Shown here: piece after piece, positions 6,256-58,863 of the stretch
How the letters are laid out: each line of letters opens with the position of its first letter
Position numbering within the stretch: position 1 is the stretch's first letter
Source: a virus
Lineage: Duplodnaviria > Caudoviricetes
Strand: one strand, 5' to 3'
DNA length: 64,000 nt
IMG/VR virus record: IMGVR_UViG_3300027759_000043
Translations under genes and position numbers: made by a program
The notes under the pieces: generated by a model
What the model was told of the DNA's origin: nothing
The model's input: only the letters and a program-made list of their open reading frames with translations
Databases searched by the model: none

Positions 6256-6279
6256 AACTCAAATGTAGTCAACCATTAG

Positions 6280-6308
6280 TTGACACAACCGGTTAAATAG
6301 TGTATACT
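6280..6308 (+). promoter_or_regulatory. Sigma70-type promoter
   Basis: TTGACA-N17-TATACT. Confidence 0.8.
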
Positions 6309-6326
6309 CAACTGTAGGAGGCATAT

Positions 6327-35214: not shown

Positions 35215-36234
35215 ATGACTGCTCGAATTGGCTTTTGTTGTAAATGGCTTAATGACCCTAGTGAGTGTGGGGGTATGAAAGTCAATGCTGTGGACCGTGA
35301 CCTAAACGGCAGATCTACCACCATGCGCTGGTTGCGTGAACATCCTGCAGACGCCGATCAGCGTCAGTGGGACATCATGAACCACAATGCGGCAGCCGCA
35401 GTGCGATTGATTGAGCGTGTGGCCACATTACCTGAGGGTCGTAGAATGGTCCGTCTAGGCAGTGAGATGCTACAAGGCTACACTGAGAAAGATTGGATCA
35501 ACTGGTGGCAACGTACTGAAATTCAAGATCACTGTGCTAAAATATTTGCTCCTGTGGGCGATACTGCTCGGAGGCTTGGCGTTCGGCTATCCTTCCATCC
35601 AGGGCAATTTTGTGTGCTGGCAAGTGAAAGTGATGAGATTGTGGAACGATCCATCCTCGAGTTTGAATACCATGCTGACATGGCACGGTGGATGGGCTAC
35701 GGAGAAACCTGGCATGATCATGGATTCAAGATCAACGTACACTTGTCGGGCAAAGGCGGCCCTGCTAAGTTTTTGCAAACACTCAAGCGATTGAGTCCCG
35801 AGGCTCGCAACCTCATAACTATCGAAAATGATGAGATGACAAATGGATTGGACACTACTTTGGCTGTGGCTCAGCATGTGGCTCTTGTGTTGGATGTACA
35901 TCACCACTGGATCAACTCAGGCGAATACATCTCGCCCACGGACGTTCGCACAAGTAGGGTTATTGACTCTTGGCGTGGTGTTCGTCCTGCAATGCATTTT
36001 AGTACTAGTCGCGAGGACGTTTTGGTCGACCATGATCGAACAGTTCGACCAGACCTTGCTGAACTTCTTGCTAGAGGTTATAAAAAGCAGAAACTCCGAG
36101 CGCACAGTGACTTCTGTTGGAATCGGGCTGTGAACGACTGGGTCTTGGGCTTTGCTGACGACTTTGACATACAAGTAGAAGCCAAAGGCAAGAACTTGGC
36201 TAGTCAGCAGTTGTTTGACCAGTCAAATCTGTAA
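35215..36234 (+). CDS. uvsE: UV-damage endonuclease UvsE/UvdE
   Basis: RIGFCCK, RLSFHPGQF, INVH, ITIENDE, LDVHHH, PAMHFS, AHSD, VEAKGKNLA. Confidence 0.9.
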   Translation: MTARIGFCCKWLNDPSECGGMKVNAVDRDLNGRSTTMRWLREHPADADQRQWDIMNHNAAAAVRLIERVATLPEGRRMVRLGSEMLQGYTEKDWINWWQRTEIQDHCAKIFAPVGDTARRLGVRLSFHPGQFCVLASESDEIVERSILEFEYHADMARWMGYGETWHDHGFKINVHLSGKGGPAKFLQTLKRLSPEARNLITIENDEMTNGLDTTLAVAQHVALVLDVHHHWINSGEYISPTDVRTSRVIDSWRGVRPAMHFSTSREDVLVDHDRTVRPDLAELLARGYKKQKLRAHSDFCWNRAVNDWVLGFADDFDIQVEAKGKNLASQQLFDQSNL

Positions 36235-36263
36235 CAAAATTGTAACACAAATTGGCCTAAATA
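36229..36263 (+). promoter_or_regulatory. Pho-box-like direct repeat plus TAAATA upstream of pstS
   Basis: CTGTAAC-AAAA-TTGTAAC (11-bp period), 10 nt, CTAAATA. Confidence 0.75.
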
Positions 36264-36286
36264 ATTGTCTAACCAAGGAGACTTTA

Positions 36287-37291
36287 GTGAAACAATTATT
36301 TGCAATCTTACTAGCGTCAATATCAATCTCAGCATCAGCACAGACCATAACAGGTGCTGGTGCAACATTCCCATACCCTATCTATTCCAAGTGGTCAGAA
36401 CTTTATAACAAAGAAACTGGCGTAGCACTCAACTATCAATCAATTGGGTCCAGTGGCGGCATTCGTCAAATTGATGCCCGTACAGTCACATTTGGTGCAA
36501 CTGATGCGCCTGTGCCTGGCGACAAACTAGACAAGAACGGTCAAGTACAGTTTCCCGCTATCATTGGCGGCACAGTTCCTATTGTGAACCTGGATGGATT
36601 CAAGCCCGGCGAGTTGCGTATTACAGGTCCTGTAATGGCAGAAGTGTTCTTGGGTGAAATCTCCAAATGGAATGATCCAAAGTTGGCGGCACTTAATCCA
36701 GGTAAAAAATTGCCTGACTTAGAAATTACTATTGTGCATCGTGCAGACGGTTCAGGTACTACATTTAACTGGACAGACTACTTGACAGTGGTCAGCACCA
36801 AATGGGCCGAAAAAGTAGGCAAAGGCGCCGCAGTTAAATGGCCAGCCGCAACATCAGTGGGCGGCAAAGGCAACGAAGGTGTTGCTGCCAATGTACAACG
36901 TGTTAAGGGCTCCATTGGCTATGTTGAATATGCCTATGTTAAAAAGAACAACTTGACTTTCTTGCAGTTGCAAAACAAGTCAGGCAAGTATGTCAGTCCA
37001 GATGATCTAACATTTGCTGCCGCGGCAGCCGGTGCTGATTGGTTCTCAGTCTCAGGTATGGGCGTGAGCATTGTGGATCAAAAGGGTGATGCTGTTTGGC
37101 CAGTGAGTACAGCCAGTTTTATCATCATGTACAAAGATCCCACAGACAAGAAAGCCAGCCAAGATACGTTGAAGTTCTTTGACTGGGCGTTCAAGAACGG
37201 TAAGAAAGCCGCAGAGGAATTGGACTATGTGGCCTTACCAGATAGCCTAACAAAGCAAATTCGCGAGCGAGTCTGGAGCCAGATTAAATAA
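36287..37291 (+). CDS. pstS: Phosphate-binding protein PstS
   Basis: Signal peptide; GAGATFPYP, YQSIGSSGG, FGATD, RADGSGTT, GSIGYVE; AAGGAG plus GTG. Confidence 0.96.
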   Translation: MKQLFAILLASISISASAQTITGAGATFPYPIYSKWSELYNKETGVALNYQSIGSSGGIRQIDARTVTFGATDAPVPGDKLDKNGQVQFPAIIGGTVPIVNLDGFKPGELRITGPVMAEVFLGEISKWNDPKLAALNPGKKLPDLEITIVHRADGSGTTFNWTDYLTVVSTKWAEKVGKGAAVKWPAATSVGGKGNEGVAANVQRVKGSIGYVEYAYVKKNNLTFLQLQNKSGKYVSPDDLTFAAAAAGADWFSVSGMGVSIVDQKGDAVWPVSTASFIIMYKDPTDKKASQDTLKFFDWAFKNGKKAAEELDYVALPDSLTKQIRERVWSQIK

Positions 37292-37340
37292 ACAAACCGC
37301 ACACAACGATAGAGTGTGACCAGAACTCGTAACTGGTACT

Positions 37341-37364
37341 AAGCACCGCAAGGTGCTTTTTTTT
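37341..37364 (+). terminator. Rho-independent terminator
   Basis: AAGCACC-GCAA-GGTGCTT plus a T-run. Confidence 0.88.
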
Positions 37365-37415
37365 GGGCTAGTTTTAAACTTAGACACGGTAAATACATCA
37401 AAAGGGCTGTTTACT

Positions 37416-39866
37416 GTGTCTATAAAAAAACCTTCCGCTGTTGAGTCAATATACGTTACTACCACTGATATTACTCCTGTTAAAAAACCTTCCGCGGTTA
37501 ATTCGGCATACGTTACTACTGCTAATACCACTGACATTACTCCTGTTACAAAACCTTCCGCGGTTAATGCACCGCAAGTTATCACCGATACTAATCCGGT
37601 TACAAAACCTTCTACGGTTGATTCCCCATATGTTACTCCGGATACTACTCCTACTAGACTTGCTGCCGCACCTGTAGCCGGTGGTGGAATCTCCACTGTA
37701 GTTGCCGCTGTCGCTAATACTGTGTCTGCTGATGCTAATACAGATACTAGCACATCCAGCACAGGATCAAATGTTTCTTATTACGCCTCAGGAATCGAGG
37801 GCATTGCTGGCCTGGTCAACTATGGCCGAGTGTTTGATGGAGCCAATGTGTATGTTACCCTGGAGCAACAGCAATACAATACCTACAATCAAACAATTGG
37901 AATCGGCAACAGTATCAGTGTAACAGGCAATATTACCAGTGGTGGATACTTTATTGGCAATGGTTCACAACTAACAGGATTGGCCGCAACTTATGGCAAC
38001 GCAAATGTAATCACTTTGTTGTCTAGTTTGGGCAGTAATATCATCAGTGGTACAGGTAACATCACAACCACTGCCAACATCAGTGGCGGTTATATCCTAG
38101 GTAACGGCAGTCAATTGAGTGGTATTCCTGCCAGTTATGGCAATGCTAATGTTGTGGCTAACTTGGCGTTGCTAGGTTCAAACCCGGTCAGCACCACAGG
38201 TAATGTGACTGCTGGCTACGTGATTGGTAATGGATCCACATTGACCAGTATTGCTGGCGCCAACGTCACAGGCACTGTGGCCAATGCAACCTATGCGGTG
38301 TCAGCAGGATCAGCAACCAGTGCAACCACATCTAGTACAGTGACAACTGCGGCACAGTCAAATATAACTTCAGTTGGTATATTAAGCAGTTTAAGTTCTA
38401 CAGGTAATGTCACAGGTGGCAACATACTAACTGCTGGTATAATAAGTGCCACAGGTAACATTGCTGGCAACGTATTCATTGGTAATGGTTCACAGTTGAC
38501 TGGTCTACCAGCAACGTATGGCAATGCCAACGTTGTGGCCAATTTAGCAGCCTTGGGTTCAAATCCGGTAAGCACTACAGGCAATGTGACTGGTGGTAAT
38601 TTATTATTTGGACCGGGCATCATTAGTGGCACCGGCAACATAACTGGTGGCAACTTAGATTTATCTTACATGGGCGGCGCGGCAAAAGGTAATCTTACCG
38701 GTGGTAATATATCAGTAACTGGCAACATCACTGGTGGTAACTTGTTAACAGGTGGACTGTTATCAACTGGTGGCAATGTAACTGGTGGAAATATTTTAAC
38801 AGCCGGAGCCGTGAGTGCCTCCAGTACAATTACTGGTGCCAACTTATCAACAGGTGGAACGGTAAGTGCTACCGGTAATGTCGCAGGTGGCAATATCGTA
38901 ACTGGTGGACTGATCTCCGCCACAGGCAATATAACTTCAGCCGGTAACATATTAAATCAAGGCTTTGTATCAAGTACTGGCAATGCCATACACGGCAACA
39001 TCTTAACTGGTGGGCTTGTGAGTGCAACTGGTAATATTACTAGTGGTAATTTGTCAGTAGTAGGAACTATCAATGGTAGCAATATTAATTTAGGATTTAA
39101 CTTATCGGCAACTGGTACAGTGACTGGTTCAAATTTCAATACTACTGGGCTAATAAGTGCAGGCGGTAATGTCACAGTCGGTAACCTACTAACTGCTGGC
39201 ATAATATCAGCAACATCAACAATTACAAGTGCCGCCAACGTAACAGGTGGCAACATCTTAACTGCTGGTGTTGTGACTGCCACAGGCAATATTGTCACAG
39301 CCGGTAACTTTGTGGGCAACGGTGCCGCATTAACCAATGTCACTGTGAGTGTGGCCGGTAACATCATTGGCACACAGTCAAATGTAACCTTGGTAGCCGG
39401 CTCATACAATTGGACATTTAACAACACCGGTAACTTGACTTTGCCCGGCAACACGTTTGCTGTAAACTACGCCAACAACACACAGGTGAATGCGGTCACA
39501 AGATTTGAAGGTGCTTGGACTGTGCCCGTGGGCAACAGCACCCAAAGTTTCACTGTGACACCCAGCGAGACCTACTACATGTGGGTTGATTGCAATATCC
39601 CCAATGGTATCTTGTCCTGGAACGCCACGGCCTCCGTTACCAACACCAACGTACCTGTTGTGGGTGTTCAGTATGCCTGGGTCTACAACGGTGGTGGAAC
39701 ACCTATTGATTTTACCAGCATACCCAATCAGTTTATAGGCACTGCCAACACCATAGTTCGTAGCAATGTGGCTCCTAGTTCAACTACCAATAGATTTGAC
39801 TTTGGAATCAACAACACCAGCGGCGCCAGTCAGACGGTGCGTTACGGTTGGATCGCAATCAGTTGA
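37416..39866 (+). CDS. Tail fibre/spike-like protein with Gly/Asn/Thr repeats
   Basis: Many (S/T)ATGN(I/V)TGGN repeats; GTG start inferred after GTAAATA (37389-37395). Confidence 0.8.
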   Translation: MSIKKPSAVESIYVTTTDITPVKKPSAVNSAYVTTANTTDITPVTKPSAVNAPQVITDTNPVTKPSTVDSPYVTPDTTPTRLAAAPVAGGGISTVVAAVANTVSADANTDTSTSSTGSNVSYYASGIEGIAGLVNYGRVFDGANVYVTLEQQQYNTYNQTIGIGNSISVTGNITSGGYFIGNGSQLTGLAATYGNANVITLLSSLGSNIISGTGNITTTANISGGYILGNGSQLSGIPASYGNANVVANLALLGSNPVSTTGNVTAGYVIGNGSTLTSIAGANVTGTVANATYAVSAGSATSATTSSTVTTAAQSNITSVGILSSLSSTGNVTGGNILTAGIISATGNIAGNVFIGNGSQLTGLPATYGNANVVANLAALGSNPVSTTGNVTGGNLLFGPGIISGTGNITGGNLDLSYMGGAAKGNLTGGNISVTGNITGGNLLTGGLLSTGGNVTGGNILTAGAVSASSTITGANLSTGGTVSATGNVAGGNIVTGGLISATGNITSAGNILNQGFVSSTGNAIHGNILTGGLVSATGNITSGNLSVVGTINGSNINLGFNLSATGTVTGSNFNTTGLISAGGNVTVGNLLTAGIISATSTITSAANVTGGNILTAGVVTATGNIVTAGNFVGNGAALTNVTVSVAGNIIGTQSNVTLVAGSYNWTFNNTGNLTLPGNTFAVNYANNTQVNAVTRFEGAWTVPVGNSTQSFTVTPSETYYMWVDCNIPNGILSWNATASVTNTNVPVVGVQYAWVYNGGGTPIDFTSIPNQFIGTANTIVRSNVAPSSTTNRFDFGINNTSGASQTVRYGWIAIS

Positions 39867-39867
39867 T

Positions 39868-40572
39868 ATGATCATACAAGGTGTAACACTGACTGGCGTT
39901 GCTGTATATGATGGTGTTGTATCCAGTGGGCTACAATTATATCTTGATGCGGCCAGTTCCTCAAGTTATCCAGGTTCGGGCACCACTTGGTTTGATCTAA
40001 GCGGCAACGGCAACGACGTTGCGATGCAGAATTCGGGCAGTATCTCGTACACTGCATCAGGTGGTGGATACTTTACTTTGGCCAGCAATGGCTATTTTAA
40101 CCGAGCCTCAACCACCGGCATTCCCACAGGCACAAGTGCTTATACATTTAGTGTATGGATACAAAAGGGAGCAAGTTGGGGCGGCAACGGCATGATTGGT
40201 GTGGGTAGTTCAACTACTACTAATCAAACCAATCAATTTAGAACTACCAGCACAAATGCGTATGTAAACTATTGGTATGGTAACGATCTAGCCGCAACCA
40301 GCACACTTAGTCCTGCATCACAATGGTTTAATGCTGTGGCACAATGGGATGGGACCACTAGAAAAATCTGGGTCAACGGTACACAACTCAGCAGTGCCGG
40401 GGCCAGTGGACTCAATGTATCCTCAAGTCTACTACAAGTCGGTGCAACCAATGTTGGCGGTAGTGAACCTTTACAAGGCAACATTGGTCAAGCATTGATC
40501 TATAACCGTGCATTAACTTCAACAGAAATTCAACAAAATTACACTGCAACCCGAACAAGGTACGGAGTCTAA
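39868..40572 (+). CDS. Concanavalin-A/LamG-like lectin domain protein
   Basis: LQLYLDA..SSSYPGSGTTWFDLSGNGN, IWVNG, IYNRALTS.EI.QNY. Confidence 0.85.
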   Translation: MIIQGVTLTGVAVYDGVVSSGLQLYLDAASSSSYPGSGTTWFDLSGNGNDVAMQNSGSISYTASGGGYFTLASNGYFNRASTTGIPTGTSAYTFSVWIQKGASWGGNGMIGVGSSTTTNQTNQFRTTSTNAYVNYWYGNDLAATSTLSPASQWFNAVAQWDGTTRKIWVNGTQLSSAGASGLNVSSSLLQVGATNVGGSEPLQGNIGQALIYNRALTSTEIQQNYTATRTRYGV

Positions 40573-40600
40573 TAAATACTCCAGCCCAAAGGAATTGCCT

Positions 40601-40765
40601 ATGAGTTGGTTCAGAAGACTCCCACACCGTTATCCGCCTGCAACCCCTGCTCCTGCACCGCATAGAACCAGTCCTGCTAGTGATCTAGCACTAGAACAAG
40701 CCAAAAAAATTGGCCCAAGCAGTCATAAAAATGTCAAAAAATCCCGCCCTATAAATAAGGAATGA
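40601..40765 (+). CDS. Small basic Pro-rich protein, 54 aa (not in ORF track)
   Basis: AAGGA RBS, ATAAATA upstream; MSWFRRLPHRYPP...; stop overlaps the next ATG. Confidence 0.55.
   Translation: MSWFRRLPHRYPPATPAPAPHRTSPASDLALEQAKKIGPSSHKNVKKSRPINKE
40720..40757 (+). promoter_or_regulatory. Pho-box-like repeat plus TATAAATA upstream of the GATase-like gene
   Basis: CAGTCAT-AAAA-ATGTCAA, then TATAAATA at 40750-40757. Confidence 0.55.
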
Positions 40766-41409
40766 AACCCACTATAGCCCTGTTCATTTACGATCCCAAG
40801 TGTAGTGTACAAAGCGGCAATGGCATTATTCGAGCATTACAATCACACTACAACTTCAAGATATTCGGCAAGAATGAACTGGAAAAAGTTTTCTTTGACG
40901 ATGTGGACATGATTGCAGTTCCGGGCGGACTGGGTGATGCCAGTAGTTATGAAACTGCATTTAGGTACAATGCTCAGCCAGTACGAGATTTTGTAGCACA
41001 GGGTGGTCGATACCTTGGCATCTGTATGGGTGCTTACTGGGCCGGAAGTCACTATCTTGATATACTGCAAGATGCGGATGCTGAACAATACATTTGTCGC
41101 CCTGGAACAGACACACGTAGGCCACATGCTAAAAATTTAGATGTGCATTGGAATCATGTTCCTCAAAAAATGTTCTTTTATGATGGCTGTGCCTTGGTAG
41201 GCGATACAAACAAATTCCGAACTGTGGCAACCTATGCTAATGGTGATCCCATGGCTATTCAGCAAAACAACATTGGCCTAATAGGATGTCATCCCGAAAG
41301 TGAACAGTTCTGGTTCGACAGTTATTCATGGATGCGGGGTCGATATCACGGCGGAGAGCATCACAGGCTCTTACTTGAATTTGTTGATCAAATGTTTGTC
41401 ACAAAATAG
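40762..41409 (+). CDS. Class I glutamine amidotransferase-like (BPL_N-type) protein
   Basis: VPGG, GGRYLGICMGAY nucleophile elbow, IGCHPE. Confidence 0.75.
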   Translation: MKPTIALFIYDPKCSVQSGNGIIRALQSHYNFKIFGKNELEKVFFDDVDMIAVPGGLGDASSYETAFRYNAQPVRDFVAQGGRYLGICMGAYWAGSHYLDILQDADAEQYICRPGTDTRRPHAKNLDVHWNHVPQKMFFYDGCALVGDTNKFRTVATYANGDPMAIQQNNIGLIGCHPESEQFWFDSYSWMRGRYHGGEHHRLLLEFVDQMFVTK

Positions 41410-41430
41410 TAACACAGATCTGCCTAAATA
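41396..41430 (+). promoter_or_regulatory. Pho-box-like repeat plus TAAATA upstream of the plcP-like gene
   Basis: TTGTCAC-AAAA-TAGTAAC, 10 nt, CTAAATA; same spacing as the pstS element. Confidence 0.75.
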
Positions 41431-41436
41431 CTTGCT

Positions 41437-42231
41437 ATGCTAAAAACATACCGCAGTATTTTTATCAGTGACGTACATCTTGGCACAAGAGACTGCAAGG
41501 CAGAAGAACTAAACAATTTTTTAAAACATAACTCATGTGATACGCTGTATCTAGTGGGAGACATCATCGATGCGTGGAAGATACAACAAAATAAATTGCG
41601 ATGGAAACAAAGCCACACCAATGTGGTACGCAGAGTACTTGGACATGCCAAACGTGGCACTAGGGTGGTATACGTAGCCGGTAATCATGACGAATTCCTG
41701 CGACCCATGATACCATACGCGGCGTCATTTGGCACTGTGGAAATTTGTAACCAATGCGAACATATAGGTGCAGACGGTCGACATTATCTTGTGGTACACG
41801 GCGACTTATTCGATGGCATCACACGATTAGCACCGTGGTTGAGTTTTTTAGGAGACAAGGCATATGATTTTATCTTGGGACTTAATAGTAGATTTAATTG
41901 GATCCGCCATCGTATGGGTTTTGGTTATTGGAGTCTTAGCCAGTTTCTTAAGCATAGGGTCAAAAAAGCCATTGACTTCATGTTCCACTTTGAACGGAAC
42001 CTCGCAACCTACTGTAAGAAAAGAGGATTTGATGGCGTGGTCTGCGGTCACATACACCACGCAGAAATAAAAGAAATTGACGGTGTTACATACATGAACG
42101 ATGGCGACTGGGTTGAGAGTTGTACAGCCTTAGTTGAACATCATGACGGACGTTGGGAAATTGTAACTTGGACAAAAACACATGACGAAAAAGATACTGA
42201 TAATAACGGACAACTTACCGGACCAAATTAA
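41437..42231 (+). CDS. plcP: PlcP-like phospholipase C (LpxH-like metallophosphoesterase)
   Basis: YRSIFISDVHLG, YLVGDIID, GNHDEFLR, HGDLFD, GD.AYD, YWSLS, CGHIHH, YMNDGDWVESCTAL. Confidence 0.8.
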   Translation: MLKTYRSIFISDVHLGTRDCKAEELNNFLKHNSCDTLYLVGDIIDAWKIQQNKLRWKQSHTNVVRRVLGHAKRGTRVVYVAGNHDEFLRPMIPYAASFGTVEICNQCEHIGADGRHYLVVHGDLFDGITRLAPWLSFLGDKAYDFILGLNSRFNWIRHRMGFGYWSLSQFLKHRVKKAIDFMFHFERNLATYCKKRGFDGVVCGHIHHAEIKEIDGVTYMNDGDWVESCTALVEHHDGRWEIVTWTKTHDEKDTDNNGQLTGPN

Positions 42232-43192
42232 TGGCGTGGTCACCACTTACAAGAACATCGAGGCTTGTGCGGTACTGGATGGTTATCACGTTGATTATAT
42301 TGATCCCGGGCGGTTCCGCTACATTAATTGCCCTCGCTACCACGAAGTCAAGATTGCCTATCCCCGGAACTTGGGCGCGAAGATTGAGGAGATTGCTCCG
42401 GATTATATCCATATCGCCACAGAGGGTCCTCTTGGTCTGTGGGCTAGAGCATATCTTTCACTGGGCGATATTCGTCACAATACCGCTTATCACACTAAGT
42501 TTCCTGAAGGGCTCAAAAAGTTATTTGGAATACCTGAGTCTATTACCTGGCGTTTTGTACGATGGTTTCATAAACATAGTGGCAAGGTTTTAACAACAAC
42601 CGATTCAATGGTAGCAGAGTTGCAATCGCACGGATTCAATGGCGAGGTAGTTCCTTGGACACGCGGTGTTGACCGTGAAATCTTTACTCCTGCACTTAGA
42701 GAAGATGCGCCAGCAAAATATCTCTTATGTGTTAGTCGTGTGAGTAAAGAAAAGAATCTTGAACAATTCCTCGAACTTGACTATCCTGGATATCAAAAGA
42801 TCATGGTAGGGGATGGACCCATGCTTGACACTTACAAGAAAAAGTATCCTGATGTACACTTTACAGGTTTTAAAACAGGTCGAGATTTAGCACGTTACTA
42901 TGCCAATGCTGACGTATTTGTGTTCCCAAGCCAGTGGGAAACATTTGGTATTGTGATGATTGAAGCCATGGCCTGCGGAACCCCAGTTGCGGCTTACCCT
43001 GTTCAGGGGCCTGAAGATGTCATAGATGAAGGCATTACTGGCTGTATGAATCTTGATCTAAAGCAGGCAGTTACTGATTGTTTATTTTTAAATAGACAGA
43101 AAGTATGGGAAGGTAGTCAACGTTGGAGTTGGGAGAGAGCATGGGCAATATTCCGCGACAATCTTACTCCCAATCACCTGTGGACCAATTAA
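42182..43192 (+). CDS. GT4 glycosyltransferase, Agt-like glycolipid synthase
   Basis: DQINGVVTT, IHIATEGPLG, TAYHTKFPE, RWFH, W.RGVD, EKN, FPSQWETFGIVMIEAMACG. Confidence 0.75.
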   Translation: MTKKILIITDNLPDQINGVVTTYKNIEACAVLDGYHVDYIDPGRFRYINCPRYHEVKIAYPRNLGAKIEEIAPDYIHIATEGPLGLWARAYLSLGDIRHNTAYHTKFPEGLKKLFGIPESITWRFVRWFHKHSGKVLTTTDSMVAELQSHGFNGEVVPWTRGVDREIFTPALREDAPAKYLLCVSRVSKEKNLEQFLELDYPGYQKIMVGDGPMLDTYKKKYPDVHFTGFKTGRDLARYYANADVFVFPSQWETFGIVMIEAMACGTPVAAYPVQGPEDVIDEGITGCMNLDLKQAVTDCLFLNRQKVWEGSQRWSWERAWAIFRDNLTPNHLWTN

Positions 43193-43209
43193 ACAAACAA
43201 AGGAAAAAT

Positions 43210-43818
43210 ATGAAAGAAATCTTACAAACACTTCGCGAGCAACGCTGGGACGACCATCGTTACTATCATCACAGTAGAATCAATCAATTCTTACACTTAA
43301 TCTCAGCCTCAAGTTTCTTGATTGCTTATGTGTATCTGTTTATTGATCCTGTTGTGAGTGCCTGGATTGCCTGGTTAGTTGCCATGACCACTCGCCAAGC
43401 CGGACACTTCTTCTTTGAACCACACGGCTACGATGAATACAACAAGGCCACATTCGAATACAAAGAAAAAATTAAGATTGGTTTCAATCTAAAACGCAAA
43501 CGAGTATTGTTATCTTGTTGGATAGCAGTTCCTATCTTGGCATTCTTTGATGCTGAGTTGATGAACTTGTTAATACCTGACAATGATCCCATGACATTTG
43601 TAAATCGTGTGGGCATGGGATGGTTATGGTTGGGTGCCGCCGGCGTTGTGTTTAGAATGATTCAACTGACTGCATTACAAAGCCGAAAGGTTGCACTGGT
43701 CTGGTGTCTAAAGATCATAACTGATCCATTCCATGATGTATGGATCTATCGTAAGAGCCCTATATATCTGATGCAGGGTCAGTTAATAGATCCTGACCTA
43801 AGACAAGATTATGCCTGA
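43210..43818 (+). CDS. Membrane protein resembling the DUF962/Mpo1 family
   Basis: AAGGA RBS; WDDHRYYHHSRINQFLHLIS and RQAGHFFFEP His motifs; several TM helices. Confidence 0.55.
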   Translation: MKEILQTLREQRWDDHRYYHHSRINQFLHLISASSFLIAYVYLFIDPVVSAWIAWLVAMTTRQAGHFFFEPHGYDEYNKATFEYKEKIKIGFNLKRKRVLLSCWIAVPILAFFDAELMNLLIPDNDPMTFVNRVGMGWLWLGAAGVVFRMIQLTALQSRKVALVWCLKIITDPFHDVWIYRKSPIYLMQGQLIDPDLRQDYA

Positions 43819-43898
43819 TTGCAAAGACTAGCAAGTCTTGCTTCATTGACAATTTTGTATGTGCTTTAGTTTTAAGCACCGTAGTTTAAATACTTGCT

Positions 43899-44039
43899 AT
43901 GAGCAGTATTTTTGAAGAACTAAACGACTTAATAACAGAGAACCCTGTTGGCAAAGTGCTGGGGATCACTCTGCTGGTTCTTGTTTTCTCTGGAGCCATT
44001 GCTCTTGGGTTTGCCTATTGGATAACTCACAGACATTGA
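43899..44039 (+). CDS. Small single-pass membrane protein, 46 aa (not in ORF track)
   Basis: TAAATACTTGCT-ATG; MSSIFEELNDLITENPVGKVLGITLLVLVFSGAIALGFAYWITHRH*. Confidence 0.6.
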   Translation: MSSIFEELNDLITENPVGKVLGITLLVLVFSGAIALGFAYWITHRH

Positions 44040-58431: not shown

Positions 58432-58863
58432 TTACTTGTAAATGTAGTTGATGGTATCTGAATTTTCTCTATAGACGCCGGCACCATTCTTTAAATGAAA
58501 GCGTCGAGCCATTTCTGTTTTAGGGCTCAAAGTCACATAGGTTTGAATTTCAGGAAACTCTGACTTGATCGATTTCTGTGTTTCCACAATCAACTCACGC
58601 CCTGCCCCTGCGGTATAACTCCAAATAGTGTAAAATACTGCGGTAGTAGCACTACCCACCAACTCGGCCAGGTCGTCTACTGCGGCTGGAATGGCTTGCA
58701 AGAACTTAACACAGGTCACTGCTTGGGTTTGATCCCCATCCTTCAACATGTAGATTCTGCTGTTCTCGTTTACCCGTTTGGTCATGGGAATTTCGGGACG
58801 TACAGGGTCATCCTTGATCAGGGTTTCTAAGTCTTCAGTAATGGTGGTAATGGTGTGTAACAT
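58432..58863 (-). CDS. GNAT-fold protein resembling the malonyl-CoA decarboxylase catalytic core
   Basis: TAVFYTIWS..GAGRELI...EFPEIQTYVTLSP. Confidence 0.5.
   Translation of the reverse strand: MLHTITTITEDLETLIKDDPVRPEIPMTKRVNENSRIYMLKDGDQTQAVTCVKFLQAIPAAVDDLAELVGSATTAVFYTIWSYTAGAGRELIVETQKSIKSEFPEIQTYVTLSPKTEMARRFHLKNGAGVYRENSDTINYIYK

Follow-up and report, generated by a model that had tools for sequence, protein, structure and literature searches.

PhoB, the regulator of the proteobacterial phosphate (Pho) regulon, recognizes DNA with a distinctive signature, comprising direct repeats at an 11-bp pitch, a TGTxA tract read in the major groove, and A/T spacers in the minor groove (PMC4447250); PstS and PlcP are standard functions of this regulon (PMC4796936, PMC4415409). 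Among phages, pstS and phoA of cyanophage P-SSM2 are under host PhoBR control (Zeng and Chisholm 2012, as cited in PMC10976474), and host PhoBR control of cyanophage phosphate genes has also been described for S-PM2d (PMC10976474). The boxes concerned are of cyanobacterial type, loosely placed, and poorly predictive (PMC10976474, PMC3037559). Late promoters of T4 are read with the help of gp55, gp33, and the gp45 clamp, and no site-specific host activator of them is known, only weak binding of DNA by the phage protein DsbA (PMC2988020). Here we describe a set of predicted PhoB-binding sites (Pho boxes) placed at a fixed distance upstream of a TAAATA element in a 64,000-nt stretch of IMG/VR record IMGVR_UViG_3300027759_000043 (hereafter "the window"). 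The window derives from an uncultured freshwater T4-like jumbo phage, with IMG/VR relatives of 343-364 kb, and no near-identical phage was found by megablast in the GenBank phage collection.

Four such sites were located in the window, upstream of pstS, a plcP-like gene, a GATase-like gene, and an open reading frame (ORF) of 143 codons. Three of them had been quoted in an earlier note, made from the letters of the sequence, and all three are present where it placed them; the fourth was not in that note. The sites and their downstream cores are listed below, with ranks from a matrix of bacterial Pho boxes that is introduced further on.

36229-36246, + strand: Pho box 1, CTGTAAC-AAAA-TTGTAAC; bacterial-matrix rank 1
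36258-36263, + strand: TAAATA core of the pstS promoter; gap to box 1 of 11 nt
40720-40737, + strand: third, Pho-box-like site, CAGTCAT-AAAA-ATGTCAA; weaker, bacterial-matrix rank 3
40750-40757, + strand: TATAAATA core of the GATase-like gene; 4 nt upstream of the ATG
41396-41413, + strand: Pho box 2, TTGTCAC-AAAA-TAGTAAC; bacterial-matrix rank 2, overlapping the 3' end of the GATase-like gene
41425-41430, + strand: TAAATA core of the plcP promoter; gap to box 2 of 11 nt, with the plcP ATG 6 nt downstream
58927-58910, - strand: fourth Pho box, CTGTAAT-TTTA-GTGTAAC; bacterial-matrix rank 9
58898-58893, - strand: TAAATA core of the promoter of the 143-aa ORF; gap to the fourth box of 11 nt

The pstS and plcP sites share one geometry (box, 11 nt, TAAATA), as the earlier note had observed, and their 35-mers from box through TAAATA are identical at 29/35 bases. 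The same note had described the surroundings of the two sites as unrelated; this holds for the flanks but not for the 11-nt spacer, which is 7/10 identical, and given this likeness the two promoters may share a common ancestry rather than having arisen independently. The third box was confirmed upstream of TATAAATA, at a distance of 12 nt from TATAAATA and 14 nt from TAAATA, a geometry unlike that of the pstS and plcP sites. Shared by only a few close relatives, as described below, it is the weakest of the set, outside the conserved spacing class of 11 or 21-22 nt. In the plcP leader, no Shine-Dalgarno sequence is present between TAAATA (41425-41430) and the ATG at 41437, corresponding to a leaderless layout. 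We also noted an identical 15-mer, TAAATACTTGCTATG, at 41425-41439 (plcP) and at 43887-43901, upstream of a 46-aa ORF (43899-44039); both copies form leaderless layouts, the latter without a Pho box.

Like proteobacterial PhoB promoters (PMC4447250, PMC4415409), these sites combine 7-bp repeats at an 11-bp pitch with a location in the -35 position, about one helical turn before a -10-like element, and the boxes stand upstream of pstS and other phosphate-stress genes. They differ in having TAAATA as the downstream element, a gap of 11 nt, mostly TGTAA half-sites, and a second spacing class of 21-22 nt. As in cyanophages, a T4-like phage appears to place pstS and further genes under the host phosphate system by means of Pho boxes. 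Cyanophage boxes, however, are 8-bp PyTTAAPyPyT/A repeats with 3-bp linkers, whereas those found here are TGTxA 7-mers with 4-bp spacers. Further, spacing to TAAATA is strict here and no fixed coupling to a late motif has been described there, and the present phages are from freshwater, have probable betaproteobacterial hosts, and also carry boxes at a plcP-agt lipid unit. In the literature searched, we came across no account of Pho boxes of the proteobacterial type in phages, nor of such boxes being fused to late promoters.

An initial, ad hoc Pho score gave 3 sites at a threshold of >=20.5 in the window against 0.23 expected, and 0/400 Markov-2 simulations produced 3. Since the ad hoc matrix had been shaped with the sites in view (A being allowed at half-site position 5) and was therefore circular, it was replaced by an independent 22-bp log-odds matrix trained only on 56 boxes from bacterial pstS promoters. 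Over 127,958 window positions, the three sites of the earlier note took ranks 1, 2, and 3 with this matrix, and the fourth took rank 9, so that the boxes are not the random scatter that the note had contemplated. From the other direction, a high-scoring box was found upstream of 4 of the 51 TAAATA hexamers in the window, namely the four sites and no others. A whole-genome scan was performed on a complete relative of 364 kb (G004) rather than on the phage of the window; there, the top box by the ad hoc score was that of the pstS promoter, again 11 nt from TAAATA.

Upstream regions were next compared among IMG/VR relatives of PstS (274) and PlcP (549). A box was identified in 39 of 51 distinct pstS upstream regions, with a gap to TAAATA of 11 nt in 31 and of 21-22 nt in 6, and in 57 of 72 distinct plcP upstream regions, with a gap of 11 nt in 21 and of 21-22 nt in 33. 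In related IMG/VR loci totalling 1.39 Mb, 249 boxes scored high, and 140 of them had a TAAATA <=30 nt downstream, at gaps of 11 nt (99 sites), 21 nt (20), 22 nt (9), 14 nt (6), and 10 nt (3). Gaps confined to 11 and 21-22 nt, differing by one turn of the helix, are what would be expected if a bound protein must face the polymerase. The design is carried by at least six unrelated gene families: pstS, plcP, the GATase-like gene, the 143-aa ORF, a 118-aa acidic protein, and a binding-protein-like gene.

Comparison within single families indicated how the arrangement may have been assembled. In the 143-aa family, TAAATA lies ~25-30 nt upstream of the start in 56 of 60 distinct relatives, and a box is present in only ~7 of the 60, six of them at gap 11. 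With TAAATA near-universal and the box rare, the box looks to have been added to a pre-existing TAAATA promoter. For the GATase-like gene, most relatives show TATAAATA alone, 4 nt upstream of the ATG; a box accompanies it only in a few that are close, the gap being 14 nt, or 11 nt in the closest. Copies of plcP in relatives retain TAAATA 4-8 nt upstream of the ATG, again a leaderless layout, and at the commonest spacing (5 nt) the A of the ATG falls at +1 in the late register.

A divergent phage lineage was also encountered in which a different motif, GAACTTAGATA, recurs upstream of genes (loci L090, L092-L094, L096, L104, L107, L109, L111, L116, L117, L012, L014, L037, and L039). Upstream of its pstS and plcP genes stands the box TGTGAC-AGTT-TTGTTTC, and the place of TAAATA, ~15 nt beyond the box, is taken by TAGATA or TACATA. 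This small sample hints that the downstream element follows the promoter type of the phage itself.

The nature of TAAATA as a promoter class was examined in G004. The hexamer is enriched, in one orientation only, between -40 and -1 of ORF starts (64 vs a background of ~1 per 10-nt bin), and lies <=60 nt upstream of 72 of 406 ORFs, with a bimodal distance to the start codon of 3-8 or 16-32 nt. Around these 72 ORF-proximal sites no conserved flanks or -35 element were detected, nor was a -35-like hexamer found at the Pho-box promoters of the window. In G004, the homologues of gp18 (sheath) and gp20 (portal) are directly preceded by TAAATA, other structural genes being intra-operonic; none was found upstream of the major capsid gene in relatives, where the gene lies inside an operon and is hence uninformative. 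Canonical TTGACA-N16-18-TAnnnT promoters number 36 in G004, and in 0/36 is TAAATA the -10. Four near-complete relatives were searched for T4-type functions: a homologue of the late sigma factor gp55 is present in 4/4 (phrog_234, E 1e-22 to 1e-25), and one of the T4 capsid protein gp23 in 3/4. For comparison, T4 late promoters have TATAAATA at -13 to -6, and Aeromonas phage Aeh1 has CTAAATA from -12 (PMC1524935).

Given the one-sided enrichment close to ORFs, the missing -35 element, the gp18 and gp20 promoters, and the motif of T4 and Aeh1, TAAATA is best read as a late-type core of the gp55 class. The earlier note had suggested that the element downstream of the boxes may be a phage motif instead of a sigma70 -10, and it does belong to the TAAATA promoter class of the phage and not to TAnnnT. 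A further likeness to T4-type late promoters is the frequent location near the start codon, and relatives encode gp55 homologues; the difference is the predicted response-regulator site at a fixed upstream position. Elsewhere in the window, a canonical sigma70-type promoter, TTGACA-17 nt-TATACT, was identified at 6270-6310, with a TAAATA by chance in its spacer, indicating that ordinary host-type promoters are also used by the phage.

Promoters of likely hosts were then compared with those of the phage. The closest bacterial PstS sequences are from Comamonadaceae (Acidovorax, Limnohabitans, and Hydrogenophaga; 74-78% identity), followed by Polynucleobacter (58-62%), and the phage PstS is only 36% identical to cyanophage PstS. 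Comamonadaceae pstS promoters read TTGTCAC-N4-TTGTCAC, 10 nt, TA(A/C/G)AGT, and phoA, pstS, and phoB of E. coli (NC_000913) have the same 10-nt gap to TATAGT, TATTTT, and CATAAT, respectively. The resemblance to PhoB repeats remarked on in the earlier note thus extends to the Pho boxes of pstS promoters in the likely host family. The bacterial logo comprises TGTCA half-sites and TAnanT, with the final T in 85%; the logo of 69 distinct phage gap-11 promoters comprises TGTAA(C/T) half-sites and a TAAATA that is invariant because it was the selection criterion. In the phage the box takes the place of a -35 element, and the gap is 11 nt to TAAATA or 10 nt to NTAAAT; TAAATA, ending in A, falls outside the sigma70-type -10 consensus (TAnnnT). 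By this comparison the phage copies the host layout with the sigma70 -10 swapped for a hexamer without the critical last T (-7).

The register of the two layouts is consistent with such an exchange. Placing TAAATA at -11 to -6, a gap of 11 nt would put the 3' edge of the box at -23, and in E. coli and Comamonadaceae a hexamer at -12 to -7 with a gap of 10 nt likewise gives a box edge at -23. The extra nucleotide is as expected for an exchange of the sigma70 hexamer for a late motif with its own register, PhoB remaining where it was with respect to the polymerase. As to the binding protein, a search of the window, the fetched loci, the closest partial relative, and the four near-complete ones revealed no PhoB/OmpR-type winged-helix domain, and the binder should accordingly be host PhoB. 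Upstream of the host plcP homologues, no strong box was found directly adjacent within the fetched loci of five Burkholderiales genomes, where the gene is probably intra-operonic. In Acidovorax and Limnohabitans (G009 contig C24 and G008 contig C1; loci L189/L274 and L201/L275) the plcP homologue lies ~7-10 kb from pstS, and host phosphate-stress genes are thus also loosely clustered.

From these comparisons we infer PhoB binding, activation, phosphate dependence, and the form of the polymerase, and propose a composite promoter in which phosphorylated PhoB (PhoB~P) gates a TAAATA core that is read by the late polymerase, a reading to which we give slightly better than even chances. In a phosphate-starved host, host PhoB~P would bind the box, formed by two TGT(A/C)A(C/T) half-sites at an 11-bp pitch with A/T-rich spacers, 11 nt (21-22 nt in some relatives) before TAAATA, and would help RNA polymerase at that element. 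The predicted outcome is increased expression of phage pstS, of a lipid-remodelling unit comprising plcP, agt, and an Mpo1-like gene, and of the 143-aa gene; the GATase-like gene may respond too. The favoured reader is the T4-type late polymerase (gp55 with gp33), with PhoB in the position that it has at host promoters, its 3' edge at -23. The more specific proposition, that PhoB~P acting from -41 to -23 directly activates a late polymerase of core, gp55, and gp33 without sigma70 region 4, is put forward more tentatively and has somewhat less than an even chance of being right. The idea advanced in the earlier note, host PhoB control at a hybrid promoter, is partly supported, all sequence-level tests able to tell against it having come out in its favour.

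A number of points weigh against the composite promoter. PhoB normally acts via sigma70 region 4. In the late enzyme, gp33 takes the docking site of region 4 on the beta flap (PMC2988020), and activation by PhoB of a gp55/gp33 polymerase, which lacks region 4, would need a new contact. Half-site position 5 is A in 91% of phage sites vs C in 94% of bacterial sites, and the affinity of TGTAA boxes for host PhoB is assumed; A/T-rich spacers raise PhoB affinity and can offset a change in the TGTCA tract (PMC4447250), which may explain tolerance of TGTAA. Many of the conserved promoters are homologous, so that counts of them overstate independence. Hosts are assigned, as probable Betaproteobacteria, from gene similarity alone. 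Finally, the check for gp55 covered relatives, and that for a phage PhoB-like protein covered relatives and the 64,000 nt of the window. A precedent for PhoB being required with a sigma factor other than sigma70 is provided by the Pseudomonas aeruginosa sigma-VreI promoters of pdtA and phdA, where PhoB is required together with an extracytoplasmic function (ECF) sigma factor and the box lies upstream of the core (PMC4971064). This requirement adds plausibility to the hybrid model, and the position of the box upstream of the core elements resembles the phage 21-22 nt class, although sigma-VreI is a cellular ECF sigma factor with region 4 and a -35 element, whereas gp55 has neither.

The arrangement of the boxes could also be that of ordinary host-type Pho promoters, in which PhoB~P recruits sigma70 holoenzyme to TAAATA, or to NTAAAT, serving as a weak -10, and likeness to the late motif is incidental or a consequence of an A/T-rich genome. 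A box standing in for the -35, 10-11 nt before a -10-like hexamer, is the E. coli and Comamonadaceae architecture, TAAATA retains T-12 and A-11, and the pstS promoter could have arrived in the phage with its gene. We nevertheless regard this explanation as unlikely, given that hosts keep TAnnnT (final T in 85%) and ~100 distinct phage promoters keep TAAATA, while the sigma70-type promoters of the lineage itself are TTGACA-N17-TAnnnT and never TAAATA. The box looks, moreover, to have joined pre-existing autonomous TAAATA promoters, and the additional nucleotide in the gap suits the register of the late motif and not that of sigma70. A related scheme would have both enzymes use overlapping elements, sigma70 with PhoB~P early in a starved cell and gp55 late without PhoB, making expression phosphate-responsive early and constitutive late. 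It accommodates the boxless TAAATA promoters found before the same genes in relatives, as well as a box position suited to contact with sigma70 region 4, and promoters of different classes often serve the same T4 gene. The same weak -10 counts against it, however, and in the 21-22 nt class the box would lie upstream of the -35, where PhoB alone is not known to activate sigma70 promoters; we consider it decidedly unlikely. A variant with an AATAnT sigma70 -10 overlapping TAAATA was likewise tried as the leading interpretation, T being present at +2 after TAAATA in 72% of Pho-type vs 33% of all TAAATA promoters. It was rejected, this hexamer lying 13 nt from the box, and the excess of T may reflect ancestry.

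Alternatively, the sites could be bound by something other than host PhoB, such as another OmpR-family regulator or a phage protein, or PhoB could act there as a repressor or roadblock. The systematic difference from host boxes at half-site position 5 would fit a different binder, and the sliding clamp by which T4 late transcription is activated (PMC2988020) could be obstructed by a protein bound immediately before a late promoter. However, PhoB sites are marked by just this 11-bp pitch, TGTxA core, and A/T spacing (PMC4447250), the downstream genes have Pho-regulon functions, no winged-helix regulator was found in relatives, and repression of scavenging genes during starvation makes little biological sense, leaving this group of explanations very improbable. 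OmpR sites have a 10-bp pitch. An OmpR-type site was rejected accordingly, the pitch here being 11 bp and the controlled genes having Pho functions. Chance resemblance without function could be entertained in that short A/T-rich motifs are common at 44% GC, but it is effectively refuted by ranks 1-3 with an independent matrix, by quantised spacing, and by conservation in divergent relatives.

The pstS leader offers a further view of its TAAATA promoter. The TAA stop of the preceding uvdE-like gene (35215-36234), at 36232-36234, falls within the first half-site of box 1, and no terminator was found between this gene and pstS, so that read-through RNA into pstS is expected. The leader contains the following element:

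36258-36302, + strand: pstS leader hairpin; 11-bp stem, with TAAATA + 5 nt as the 5' arm and codons 2-6 as the 3' arm

In read-through RNA, the Shine-Dalgarno sequence (36275-36280) and GTG start would lie hidden within the hairpin, whereas RNA starting ~6 nt after TAAATA would lack the 5' arm and is predicted to be unstructured. Pairing was better than in shuffled controls in 13 of 37 relatives, with compensatory changes in L088, L113, and L106. In the leaders of T4 genes e, soc, and 49, a late promoter lies inside a hairpin that hides the ribosome site. The pstS leader resembles these in that the phage TAAATA forms the 5' arm and the ribosome site is free only in RNA started at the promoter, and differs from them in that the hairpin is combined with a Pho box and is significant in ~1/3 of relatives. 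The logic of T4 gene e implies that initiation at the pstS TAAATA promoter matters.

The genes downstream of the boxes, together with the terminator that follows pstS, are:

36287-37291, + strand: pstS, phosphate ATP-binding cassette (ABC) transporter binding protein with a signal peptide; GTG start, Shine-Dalgarno at 36275-36280
37341-37366, + strand: intrinsic terminator 3' of pstS; 7-bp stem followed by a T run
40762-41409, + strand: GATase-like/BPL_N-like gene (PF09825, E 5.9e-9)
41437-42231, + strand: plcP-like LpxH-family metallophosphoesterase, with a Metallophos domain
42182-43192, + strand: GT4 glycosyltransferase (agt-like), overlapping the plcP 3' end
43123-43818, + strand: Mpo1/DUF962-like membrane protein (weak match, E 1.9e-4); last gene of the plcP unit
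58432-58863, - strand: 143-aa ORF with a partial, C-terminal malonyl-CoA-decarboxylase/GNAT-like domain (PF05292, E 4.8e-7)

The PstS assignment exceeds equivalog cut-offs (NF008171, 394.8 bits vs 339; TIGR00975, 364.6 vs 205), and the terminator makes the pstS unit monocistronic. The plcP-like protein falls under the cut-off of LpxH models (48.9 vs 134) and shares 52-57% identity with its homologues in Limnohabitans, Acidovorax, and Polynucleobacter; the agt-like gene is probably on the same transcript. Between pstS and the GATase-plcP unit, positions 37390-40572 hold a repeat-rich ORF of ~820 aa and a LamG/ConA-like gene, a block that lacks a box but has a TAAATA to itself (37390). The GATase-like gene comes directly after pstS in the closest relative (L082/L004), and the block thus looks inserted into a phosphate-stress island. 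The 143-aa gene is very widespread in related phages, with ~600 IMG/VR matches. Among sequencing runs, no RNA data set was listed for an 8-kb stretch of this DNA; for pstS by itself, two marine metatranscriptomes contain 4-7% of the words, in the form of contigs, from which transcript starts cannot be read and which bear neither way on expression.

Phage use of the host phosphate regulon has been established only for marine cyanophages, with loose and unreliable predicted boxes. In the present case the signal is clean and keeps a strict spacing, and it is shared across a large group of uncultured freshwater jumbo phages, where it precedes pstS and a membrane-lipid unit; from its sequence context, these phage genes are probably gated by the nutrient status of the host. 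Should the responding enzyme indeed be the late polymerase, host nutrient sensing would feed into the phage late programme through an undescribed contact between regulator and polymerase. This would constitute the first site-specific host-encoded activator of T4-type late promoters and a new contact surface for PhoB, repeatedly added to phage promoters. The combination of a box, an 11-nt gap, and TAAATA provides a short, defined test object for how phages may tune auxiliary genes to phosphorus limitation in lakes.

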